Part shown: piece by piece, positions 3,001 through 6,000 of the stretch | How the letters are laid out: each line of letters opens with the position of its first letter | Numbering within the stretch: the stretch's first letter is position 1 | Source of the DNA: an uncultured Bacilli bacterium | GTDB taxonomy: Bacteria; Bacillota_I; Bacilli_A; RFN20; CAG-826 | Assembly (NCBI GenBank): GCA_905235515.1 | Contig: CAJOLV010000002.1 | Span: 85,924 to 132,361, forward strand | Direction of reading: 5' to 3' | DNA length: 46,438 nt | Program-made: the position numbers

Positions 3001-6000
3001 AAAAGATATAGAAAACTGGGAGCAAGATGAAGACGTCTTAGATACATGGTTTTCTTCTCAATTATGGCCATTTTCCACTTGGGGGTGGCCGAAGAAAACT
3101 CCTGATTTAGAAAGATATTTCCCAACCGATTGTTTAGTCACCGGTTATGACATCATCTTCTTCTGGGTTTCAAGAATGATTTTTGAGTCATTAGAAATGA
3201 CTGGTAAAGCCCCATTTAAGCAAGTGGTAATTCATGGCTTAGTCCGTGACGAATTAGGTCGTAAGATGTCTAAATCATTGGGCAACGGTGTTGATCCAAT
3301 CGCTGTTATTGACCAATACGGCGCGGATGCATTAAGATATTTCCTAACGACCAATAGCACTCCGGGACAAGATATGCGTTATATCGATGAAAAAGTCGCC
3401 GCGAGCATGAATTATTTAAATAAGATATGGAATTCCGCTCGTTATGTTTTAAGTGTTATACCAGAAGATTTCAAAGAACAAGAAATTGATAAAGCACAAC
3501 TTAATCCAATTGACCAATGGATTCTCAATAGACTCCAATTAACAATTAAAAATGTGACAATCAATATGGATAAATATGACTTTAACGCCGCGAGTAACCA
3601 TCTCTACAATTTTGTCTACGATGACTTCTGTTCACAATATTTAGAAATGTCGAAAGTTTCATTAAATTCTTCAGATGATAAAATTCGACAAATTACATAT
3701 CAAGTGTTGGTTAAATGTTTAAAATCGATTATCTTACTAATTTATCCATACACTCCATTCATTGCGGAAGAATTATATCTCAATCTCCCTCAACATTTAC
3801 AAAGCATAATGTTAGAGAGCTATCCTCAATATGATCAAAAATCTATTGATGAGTCTGTTAATGATCAGATTGATATTTTGTTTGATGTTATTAAAGATGT
3901 GAGAAATTACAAAATTGAAAACAAATTAGCGCCTAACGTGAAGTTAGAATTATCTATTAATCTTAAGATTAAAATGTTTGATAAATTCTTAACTTATCTC
4001 AATAGATTCACTTTCTCAGATGTGAAAATTATTGGCGAAGAAATTCTCAACATGAAAGGTGAATTAAAGGTTTATCCAAACGCTACGCTATTAATTGTTA
4101 ATGAAGCGGGCAGAGATGAGCTTCTCATGAGAATCGAAAAAGAGATTGAAAATGAGAAGGCAGAAATTGCTCGTGGGGAGAAGATGTTGAGCAATCCAAA
4201 CTTCATCAACAAAGCTCCAAAAGAAAAGGTTGAACTTGAACAAAGTAAGTTAAATATGCACAAAGAAAATCTCGCTTCATTAATCGAGAAAAAAACAAAA
4301 ATTTAAAAAAATGTGCAACTAAATTGAAAAATCTCCGAATAGTTTATGAGGAGGTTTTTTATGAAATGCCGTATTTTAACTGAAAAAGAAATGACACAAA
4401 TTAGTGGCGGAGAGGTCATTACAGTGTCCGCTGTGATGGCGGTTTTATGCGCTGCCGTGATGGCGGTAGTTATCTATCGTCTATTTATGTCTAAAAAGGG
4501 TACTGCAGCTGTTCCGGGTGGCTGGAAGTTTACTTGGAATTAGCCCTTGCCAAAGATTAAAGACTTGCCAAAACAAGAAAGGCCAAGAGAAAAAGCGATT
4601 CGTTTTGGAATTGAAACTCTTTCAAATGAAGAATTGCTCGCTATATTATTACGAACGGGTACAAAAGATTTAAGCGCGCTTGATCTCGCTCACAATTTAT
4701 ATAGTGATTATCACGGCTTGGCCAACTTGTTGAAGCAACCTTATGAGGCTCTTTTAGATATGCGGGGAATAGGACCCGGAAAATCCTTAATTCTTTCTGC
4801 GTGTTTTGAACTATCTAAAAGATATGGGATGCTTTCTTATTATGACACAGAGGTCGTAAATGGTGGATATTTGTATCAAAGATACATTGGTAAAATATCT
4901 CACTCTGATCAAGAACAAATTGTAATAGTTATCCTCAATAGTAAAAAACGCATCATTCATGAGGAATGCATTTATCGTGGCAGTGAACAATCAGTAGATT
5001 GTAATCCTTTAGAAATAGTGAAAAAAGTTATCCTCCATAAAGGGAAATATTTCTATTTAATCCACAATCACCCAAGTGGAAACCCGCAACCATCAAACGC
5101 TGACAAAATATTAACTACTCACATTATTGCAACAGCAAATATGATGAGAGTTATTTTGCTCGACCACATTATAGTTGGGAATAGAGGCTATTACTCATTT
5201 ATTGAAGGCATGGAAGTGATGAAAAAGTAGCTAATTTTGCAATTATAAATTTCTTTTATTTCTTGTTGATTCTTATATATAACTTATGTTATATTACTAG
5301 CGTTGTCGCCTCACTAGCTACAACCGCATAGAAGAGGTTGTTAAAAACCTATTAAGGTTACCTTAATAGCGAGTCATTAGTGAACATCTTAAAAGGAGGG
5401 ACATTATGTACGCAATTATTGAAACTGGCGGAAAACAAATCCGTGTCGAACAAGGTTCCAGAATCTTCGTTGAGAAGTTAGAAGCCGAAGTCGGTTCCAC
5501 AATTACATTAGACAAAGTTCTCTTTGTCGGTGGAAAATCCGTGAAAGTTGGTGCACCTTATGTTGAAGGCGCATCCGTTACCGCTAAAGTTGAAAAACAA
5601 GGAAAATCCAAAAAAATCCGTGTCTTCAAGTACAAAGCAAAGGCCAACGAACATAAGACCATCGGTCATCGTCAACCATACACTTGCTTAGTTATCGAAG
5701 CCATTAATGCCTAATCATGATTAAAATTACTGTTAGGTATCAAAGCACAGGCGAATTCCTCTCATTAGAAAGCCTTGGTCACGCAAATAGCGCTCCATAC
5801 GGAGAAGACTTAGTGTGTGCTGCGGTGAGTGGCATTATCTTAGGCGGTATTAACGCTTTAAAAGATGGATGCTACAAACTCCATTATGATGAGAAACAGG
5901 GAAGCATCGTTCTATGCAACATCGGTAAAATGTCTCAACACGATATTATCGTGATTGAAACAATTATCTCGCAACTTAAATCAATTGAAAGAGATAATCC

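Follow-up and report, generated by a model that had tools for sequence, protein, structure and literature searches.

In streptococci, ComC/CSP is produced as a GG|E precursor that undergoes C39 processing within a competence circuit that includes ComAB, and CibAB is a class II double-glycine bacteriocin induced during competence. The system closest to the one described here is that of Mycoplasma genitalium. The sections of the two reports on which we draw (PMC4446450, PMC6105099) describe a sigma-20 regulon that contains recA, ruvAB, MG_220 (rrlA) and MG_390, a putative peptide exporter, with MG_220 as its most induced gene, reaching up to 165-fold (PMC4446450). Loss of rrlA abolishes both sigma-20 activation and recombination (PMC4446450, PMC6105099). 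Loss of MG_390 causes a tenfold drop in recombination-based transformation (PMC4446450), and the share of RecA-on cells in the MG_390 deletion stays near normal (0.51% vs 0.66%; PMC6105099), so processing is not needed for the feedback in M. genitalium. The part of the minimal-cell paper that deals with JCVI-syn3A 0401 (PMC6609329) describes this and other mycoplasma C39 proteins as being without a known double-glycine substrate and assigns the 0401 exporter a tentative role in lipoate import.

Here, we examined a window of 46,438 nucleotides from an uncultured Bacilli bacterium of the order that the initial annotation calls RFN20 (genome G000), in which a small gene lies between valS and radC. 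The features that matter for the argument, numbered from the first nucleotide of the window, are the following.

1715..4306, forward strand: valS (PF00133), the upstream anchor
4309..4360, forward strand: shared upstream element ("competence box"), a predicted alternative-sigma promoter followed by GGAGG at 4350-4354
4325..4361, forward strand: predicted hairpin of -13.4 kcal/mol, pairing CTCC with the GGAG of the ribosome site and ending in a T run; putative function only
4361..4411, forward strand: double-glycine-type leader of 17 residues with a predicted cleavage site (TIGR01847; G(-1) in 68/70; leaderless homologs start near the site)
4412..4543, forward strand: predicted mature microprotein of 43 aa (AlphaFold2, hydrophobicity, charge)
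4547..5230, forward strand: radC (PF04002, PF20582 and NF000642 over cut-off), 3 nt past the microprotein gene
5406..5714, forward strand: rplU, recognised from its sequence, the downstream anchor

The ORF proposed by the initial annotation is real: it runs from 4361 to 4543 (+), encodes 60 aa and is preceded by a GGAGG ribosome site. Its standing as a conserved single-copy core gene of RFN20 was also confirmed, with homologs in 142 of the 151 genomes of the order, including 115 of the 116 of high quality, and a second copy in G081 alone. Purifying selection is evident from synonymous differences exceeding non-synonymous ones in 23/23 comparable pairs (e.g. 0.46 vs 0.031). As had been claimed, radC directly follows the gene, in 64 of the 69 RFN20 loci with downstream sequence (60 scored by pattern and 4 read by eye, with one of 70 loci left out at a contig edge), and the two are likely co-transcribed. 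RNA contigs from 4 runs did not cover the gene, a result that carries no weight for or against its expression.

In a scan of Pfam and NCBIfam, the generic leader model TIGR01847 was the sole family over its cut-off for the window protein (17.5 bits, cut-off 15.7). The GG|E leader described earlier holds for G(-1), present in 68 of 70 homologs drawn from all eight families, and less strictly for G(-2) (50/70) and E(+1) (56/70), with V, P, S and other residues in place of G(-2) in 20 of the 70. Variation at G(-2) is unusual among C39 substrates, and its occurrence in 20/70 counts against the explanation that we favour below. The proposed PGG(W/F)KF(T/S)W tail needs a similar adjustment and is better written P-G-G-aromatic-x-F-x-W, since the P (64), G (64), G (66), aromatic (68), F (68) and W (64) are found in most of the 70 homologs and the K (47) and T/S (35) positions vary.

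In the AlphaFold2 model (mean pLDDT 81), the leader forms a short helix and residues 19-43 a long one, and residues 47-51 and 55-59 make up a beta-hairpin, so that the mature part is predicted to be a hydrophobic helix followed by a basic Y[RK]LF.S motif and the hairpin. Across the 70 homologs, the helix has a mean hydrophobicity of 2.67 over 19 residues, with a flanking charge of -0.9 before and +1.6 after it. Known families were approached without being reached. The class IIb bacteriocin model TIGR03949 gave 20.5 bits (cut-off 21.5) for the window protein and matched 10 of 33 family members at E<=0.05, the bacteriocin match covering only the leader and helix, and the ComC/CSP model NF033214 gave 11.9 bits (cut-off 50, E 0.13) over the leader region only. 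A fold search with the model, a short helical query, returned only generic helices (best Z 3.4, rmsd 5.2, 44 aligned residues), and an ESM Atlas search with the window protein only unnamed clusters.

The box reported ahead of the gene was found again, and it is shared with competence genes. Its 38 nt are identical before dprA (38/38; dprA was recognised from its sequence) and nearly so before comEA-comEC (37/38) and at C3:10688(-) (35/38). From its sequence we infer the -35 and -10 boxes of an alternative-sigma promoter, with TGCAAC at 4314-4319, a 16-nt spacer and CGAATA at 4336-4341. The same element was seen by eye before comEA and the microprotein gene in G025 and G003; it drifts from genome to genome, yet is common to genes within one genome. 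When the DNA upstream of the microprotein gene was compared with that of other genes, the C39 gene of the same genome ranked 1st or 2nd in 12 of 17 genomes and 5th to 16th in the other five, and the mean score of C39 genes was 39.4 vs 23.2 for 73 neighbouring control genes. These results support common genome-specific promoters for the microprotein and C39 genes.

A candidate for the sigma factor is a 199-aa protein encoded in G000 after cysS and an rlmB-like gene, the neighbourhood in which sigH lies in Bacillus; its counterpart in G025 is matched best, below cut-off, by SigH models. The hairpin at 4325..4361 is predicted to form only in read-through RNA from valS. Pairing of the ribosome site (>0.6) was predicted in 71% of 69 homolog leaders. 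The corresponding share was 41% for 379 genes of G000 and 57% for 21 neighbouring genes, which makes a moderate enrichment among homologs, and a CCTCC..GGAGG pair is also present upstream of the SigH-like gene of G000. The arrangement resembles the inverted repeat of Staphylococcus aureus sigH, which, in the section of PMC3486894 that deals with it, makes the ribosome site of a competence gene inaccessible; the predicted window hairpin differs in overlapping the predicted promoter of the target genes.

The C39 peptidase (PF03412) is, as the initial annotation stated, near-universal in RFN20 (142/151 genomes) and missing from the assembly of the window. This absence looks like an assembly gap, because none of 18 proteins taken from the C39/ybeY and sigA neighbourhoods of relatives (0/18) was found in G000 either. 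In RFN20, f11, f29 and f34 (f numbers denote families), as well as in G627, G642 and G305, the C39 gene adjoins ybeY-(cdd)-era, and it also lies before ybeY in the mycoplasma-type genomes G160 and G413; some copies in f28 and f35 have other neighbours.

Three size classes can be distinguished. Full exporters of ~630-700 aa with Walker motifs occur in f29, f34 and mycoplasmas; proteins of ~390 aa, in which the peptidase and a membrane part remain and the ATPase domain is gone, are found in most of RFN20; and a peptidase alone, of 120-170 aa, is found in f2, f5 and some f11. The single protein of about 400 aa described previously is therefore right for most RFN20 families (~390 aa) and wrong for f2 (120-130 aa) and f5 (145-170 aa). 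The membrane part is a relative of the TMD of the full exporter (HHalign 82.7%, E 9e-6), whereas the same 390-aa tail gave 0.2% against unrelated exporters and ComEC. An ATPase domain was not found in the ybeY-linked C39 of RFN20. The catalytic Cys, His and Asp-Pro are retained in 19 of the 23 proteins examined, even in remnants of 120 aa. The best NCBIfam match of the RFN20 C39 is the mycoplasma Mbov_0121 exporter family (NF045998), and its weaker matches include two stand-alone maturases, FapD of an amyloid fibril and FilB of a putative pilus.

The leader and the peptidase disappear together. In the Erysipelotrichales-type order of G232, a C39 protein was found at E<=1e-4 in every genome whose peptide is full-length and bears a leader (66/66) and in no genome whose peptide is leaderless (0/22). 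This count leaves out five weak partial peptide matches (G476, G314, G350, G590, G613) and five weak C39 matches (E>5e-4, frames of ~460-510 aa, in G243, G308, G410, G535 and G585; the peptides of G410 and G535 have no leader). For the 22 leaderless peptides, the start was confirmed at the DNA level, and a C39 gene was not found before ybeY in the 3/3 leaderless genomes examined there. The leaderless homologs are ~35-43 aa long and start near the predicted Gly-Gly cut, which would leave a product of 43 aa in the window protein. These genomes are kin, and a FastTree phylogeny of RadC and MreC, poorly rooted as its outgroups had RadC only, gave three losses by Dollo count, two of them well placed; the 66/66 vs 0/22 contrast thus reflects 2-3 independent losses, a small real sample although a one-directional one. 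Because C39 shrinks stepwise and is lost together with the leader, cleavage seems likely and export dispensable: C39 very probably clips the microprotein leader after Gly-Gly, and ATP-driven export is probably not what selection retained. The loss of the ATPase, then of the membrane domain, then of leader and peptidase favours a microprotein resident in the membrane over a competence peptide that is secreted. In f29 and mycoplasmas the full exporter has been retained, and export may still take place there.

The family is wider than RFN20, is unnamed and reaches the mycoplasmas. The earlier statement that only 3 weak hits lie outside the order did not hold: profile A1 matched 20 of 350 genomes in a class-wide sample outside RFN20, of which 19 were real on inspection, and one, in G276, was rejected as lying inside a 788-aa permease. 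Of the 161 genomes from the order of G232, 93 matched profile A2 (88 after removal of weak partial matches) and the other 68 did not; in the mycoplasma-type order of G377, A2 matched 34 of 141. Profile A4 matched 84 of 91 genomes in the family of G377, one mycoplasma family, at E<=0.05, and itself matched A1 at 98.9% (97% for the mature part alone). Named members belong to Erysipelotrichaceae, Dielma, Eggerthia, Erysipelothrix, Mycoplasmopsis, Mycoplasma and Spiroplasma, and nearly all are annotated as "hypothetical protein".

Outside RFN20 the gene lies before radC, at times with an A24-like or another small gene in between, or directly before rplU, as in many mycoplasma-type genomes, and has been relocated in some genera. 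valS is upstream in the Erysipelotrichales-type loci L170, L174, L176, L182 and L185, and f29 has 2-4 tandem copies per genome. In 10 genomes from 10 other Bacilli families, the 1.5 kb ahead of radC contained no recognisable homolog, and none was seen in the portions covered of G305 (160 of 833 kb) and of G160, G248 and G413 (20-kb pieces), portions that are compatible with a homolog elsewhere in these genomes. Long proteins among the 122 representatives were set aside, the six inspected being unrelated repeats. The literature covered in our search contained no paper describing the family.

The C39 exporter is present in 125 of 141 mycoplasma-order genomes. The orphan mycoplasma exporters (NF045998; JCVI-syn3A 0401) resemble the RFN20 C39 in NCBIfam match and in position before ybeY. 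Candidate double-glycine substrates were found in f28, f32 and part of f35, and the family would fill the substrate gap in f28 and f32 and probably in that part of f35. C39 is present in 32/34 genomes of f18 and 34/34 of f35, where A2 gave 1 and 2 peptide matches, two of these three being false, and no family member was found in the partial reads of f18. The C39 genes without peptide matches in f18 and f35 and the 68/161 Erysipelotrichales-type genomes without the peptide count against the explanation that we favour below.

The microprotein and RrlA are alike in being small proteins in which a Gly-Gly leader precedes a single hydrophobic helix. Both published MG_220 primers match one 93-aa ORF of this build in G627, annotated at its source as MG220/MPN313. 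The match of the MG_390 primer in G627 is a C39 exporter gene, two genes before ybeY-era. The likeness to the M. genitalium pair of RrlA and MG_390, called "SunT", extends to an alternative sigma with recombination genes and to a C39 gene next to ybeY-era in the regulon; by sequence, a putative alternative-sigma promoter is likewise shared with comEA and dprA in G000 and with the C39 gene in relatives. RrlB was rejected as a homolog, as its primers match a different, soluble ORF. The differences are that the window protein has 60 aa and RrlA 93, that RrlA has another locus, adjoining neither radC nor rplU, and a tail that does not align with the beta-hairpin, and that M. genitalium has a full exporter where RFN20 has a truncated C39.

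With full-length profiles, the RrlA ORF ranked first of 8071 frames of G627 with both A2 and A4 (E 0.13 and 0.06), HHalign gave 94% and 92% against the same profiles, and the two nearest ESM clusters of RrlA consisted of Mycoplasmatota proteins without a name, 80 and 91 aa long (0.90 and 0.89), with bacteriocins at 0.81. In the reverse direction, an RrlA profile placed the window protein 1st among 1032 called genes (E 0.54) and outside the top 6 of 15157 raw frames. When the mature part was taken alone, RrlA scored 18.4, 15.7 and 13.9 in HHalign, where the best shuffles reached 17.9, 14.3 and 14.0. Genuine family members outscored every one of 10 shuffles in no more than 5/38, 4/27 and 7/18 cases, and mature-only profiles ranked RrlA 70th to 3569th. 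NF045747, the RrlA/MPN313 family, had no match to the window protein at E<=1, and RrlA itself scores 138.9. A primer scan across the collection of named genomes gave two unrelated matches only, and a metagenome scan for bridging relatives of RrlA found none. The literature covered in our search did not describe a Gly-Gly leader on RrlA, and the words "glycine" and "leader" occur 0 times each in the main text of PMC6105099. Putative homology with RrlA thus rests largely on the leader and the architecture, with weak similarity beyond the leader. On balance we lean towards common ancestry of the microprotein family and RrlA, and we are more confident that the two work alike.

Our results leave several explanations to be weighed against a membrane-resident microprotein. 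A secreted pheromone like streptococcal ComC/CSP, exported by a C39 transporter, would account for the GG|E precursor and C39 processing in a competence circuit, since the leader is of the CSP kind (NF033214, leader region only), full exporters are retained in f29, f34 and mycoplasmas, and sigma-20-on cells are described in spatial association in a section of PMC4446450. However, most RFN20 C39 proteins have no ATPase domain and those of f2, f5 and some f11 no membrane domain, 22 genomes have neither leader nor C39, and the product is a conserved 25-residue hydrophobic membrane helix under purifying selection, unlike the short, pherotype-variable CSP. Activation is also hardly affected by MG_390 deletion in the results drawn from PMC6105099. 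A cognate receptor (ComD/E or ComR) was not identified, although no search aimed at one was made. We consider a pheromone quite improbable. Much the same judgement applies to a competence-induced, cell-associated killing peptide, a CibAB-like fratricin that would free the DNA of siblings. Leaderless bacteriocins exist, TIGR03949 falls just under its cut-off, and the likeness to class II double-glycine bacteriocins with PCAT exporters (TIGR03949, PF10439) covers the leader pattern, the hydrophobic core and a C39 partner. The microprotein nevertheless stays below the family cut-offs, its bacteriocin match spans only leader and helix, it has no adjacent immunity gene, with radC within a few bases in 64/69 loci, and it is a single-copy core gene at one locus across three orders; its C39 partner in RFN20 lies elsewhere on the chromosome and is losing its export parts, so that no complete PCAT is present.

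A structural role is unlikely rather than implausible: the clipped peptide could be the building block of a fibre or contact structure, anchored in the membrane, that takes up DNA or passes it from cell to cell, with C39 as its maturation enzyme in place of a prepilin peptidase. The pilin-like build of hydrophobic helix and small beta-hairpin in the AlphaFold2 model, the 2-4 tandem copies in f29, FapD and FilB among the weaker C39 matches, and the 165-fold induction of MG_220 and tenfold effect of MG_390 loss on transformation (as given in PMC4446450) would fit it, as would the fact that PilC and prepilin peptidase (A24) occur in only 11/81 RFN20 genomes each. On the other hand, a Tad ATPase is found in 59/151 genomes and in none of f2, f3 and f7, which keep the peptide, the Tad operon carries its own Flp-like gene, ComGA-sized ATPases are present in 5/5 Erysipelotrichales-type carriers, and RrlA loss acts upstream, on sigma-20 itself, according to the results drawn from PMC6105099. 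Identity with the Tad pilin was rejected on the distribution mismatch (59/151 vs 142/151 for the peptide) and the Flp-like gene of the operon, and processing by a prepilin peptidase on the rarity of A24 (11/81); the distribution of pilus machinery therefore rules out a simple Tad or type IV pilin role and leaves a C39-matured fibre. comEC is kept in 5/5 RFN20 members examined, and two RFN20 families, as named in the relevant part of PMC10868615 and not by our f numbers, are predicted to lack a cell wall, a state that may explain comEC retention without a pilus in many members. Finally, an ordinary small membrane protein with a vestigial leader and a coincidental link to C39 and RrlA would agree with the dispensable leader of 22 genomes, the variable G(-2) and the near-noise similarity of the mature region of RrlA, but the 66/66 vs 0/22 pattern over 2-3 losses, the shared promoters and the catalytic residues kept in 120-aa remnants make this very improbable.

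The explanation that we favour, by analogy with RrlA and with about as much to be said for it as against, is a processed, membrane-resident microprotein with a feedback role on a competence sigma. The SigH-like sigma would transcribe the peptide-radC genes, comEA-comEC, dprA and the C39 gene together. The C39 peptidase, encoded before ybeY, would cut the leader at the inner face of the membrane, and the 43-aa product would insert in the membrane of the producer, where it likely stays, with its basic hairpin end inside; the flanking charge predicts an N-out/C-in topology, in which the leader would act as a latch up to the moment of cleavage. The mature peptide would then feed back positively and help to keep the competence/recombination sigma switched on in the manner of RrlA, possibly by binding it directly or shielding it from a protease. 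For such an RrlA-like feedback role taken separately, our confidence is at or slightly below an even balance. The near-normal share of RecA-on cells after MG_390 deletion speaks against our explanation. The processed competence peptide of the whole order that was first proposed survives, on firmer ground than before, in its link to the regulon and to C39, through shared promoters and joint loss; it has to be given up as order-specific, and a secreted form of it is unlikely.

Taken one step further, the microprotein family and RrlA could belong to one ancient competence switch of Erysipelotrichales, RFN20 and mycoplasmas, in which a bacteriocin-type export system became a device for in-membrane positive feedback. 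Its microprotein, a membrane protein with a double-glycine leader, would be the substrate that the MG_390/0401 exporter lacks, and that exporter would have been pared down to the peptidase alone before it vanished along with the leader. We put this forward tentatively, with the balance somewhat against it. Sequence comparison points to a variant of the double-glycine/C39 theme inside a competence regulon, with a possible tie to RrlA and the orphan mycoplasma exporter. The microprotein offers a concrete candidate substrate for the C39 exporter of those 125 mycoplasma-order genomes and may be the missing substrate of a transporter without known cargo, and RrlA, a sigma accessory protein of unknown mechanism, is recast as a likely processed membrane precursor. 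The natural series from exporter to peptidase to nothing tells which step of peptide export selection kept, and the findings point to a competence circuit that may be common to uncultured gut Bacilli, Erysipelotrichales and mycoplasmas.

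The peptide gene varies in copy number and in its predicted processing site among relatives. Genomes of f29, an Erysipelotrichales-type family with a full C39 exporter, carry 2-4 copies each that have diverged from one another (L183 and L390-L392; G452, G506, G574 and G514), and in most cases the copies lie in tandem, followed by a small gene and then radC. In the homologs of genus g110 (L295-L307) the predicted cut site is mostly x-G (PG, VG) rather than GG, and most of these loci have a DprA-like gene close by on the opposite strand, after rplU-rpmA.

In genus g149 (L242-L250, L333), the peptide ORF is intact in several genomes in which comEC, the C39 gene or radC contains internal stops or gives no match. 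In the mycoplasma-type order of G377, the C39 gene was matched in 0/8 genomes of family f43 and 0/4 of genus g291, and the peptide profile A2 had no match in either group, which may represent one more joint loss of peptide and C39; comEC is retained in all 8 f43 genomes. Locus L071 (G069 contig C7:7711-11121) encodes a complete bacteriocin exporter alongside small double-glycine-like ORFs; this exporter differs from the core C39, and the locus may have been transferred or may lie on a contaminant contig.

A Tad-like operon is present in 59 of the 151 genomes of the order, including 39/40 in family f1, although 19 f1 genomes searched yielded no A24 prepilin peptidase. In G326 a short A24-like gene lies ahead of radC and behind a leaderless peptide gene; comC occupies this position before radC in Bacillus and Staphylococcus.

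L133:7373-11989 (G003) and L134:5513-10187 (G145), Tad-like operon with an ATPase, genes resembling TadB/C and a Flp-like gene
L177:3635-3979 (G326), short A24-like gene (PF01478, E 0.006), flanked by radC and the leaderless peptide ORF

Several sporulation-type sigma factors, typed by size and sequence, occur in G016 of family f2 (L116, L120). Further copies of the box were located in G000, and a predicted hairpin lies upstream of the peptide gene.

C3:10688, minus strand, box copy matching at 35/38 positions, ABC-transporter cluster downstream
C20:28313, C16:12418 and C2:119026, weaker box copies, each ahead of an unannotated gene (three genes)
Window 4325-4361, and upstream regions of homologs, hairpin with a T run that would mask the ribosome site and overlaps the predicted promoter

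Read-through RNA could be both stopped and silenced by this ribosome-site hairpin, while a sigma-driven transcript, starting in the hairpin loop, could remain translatable.
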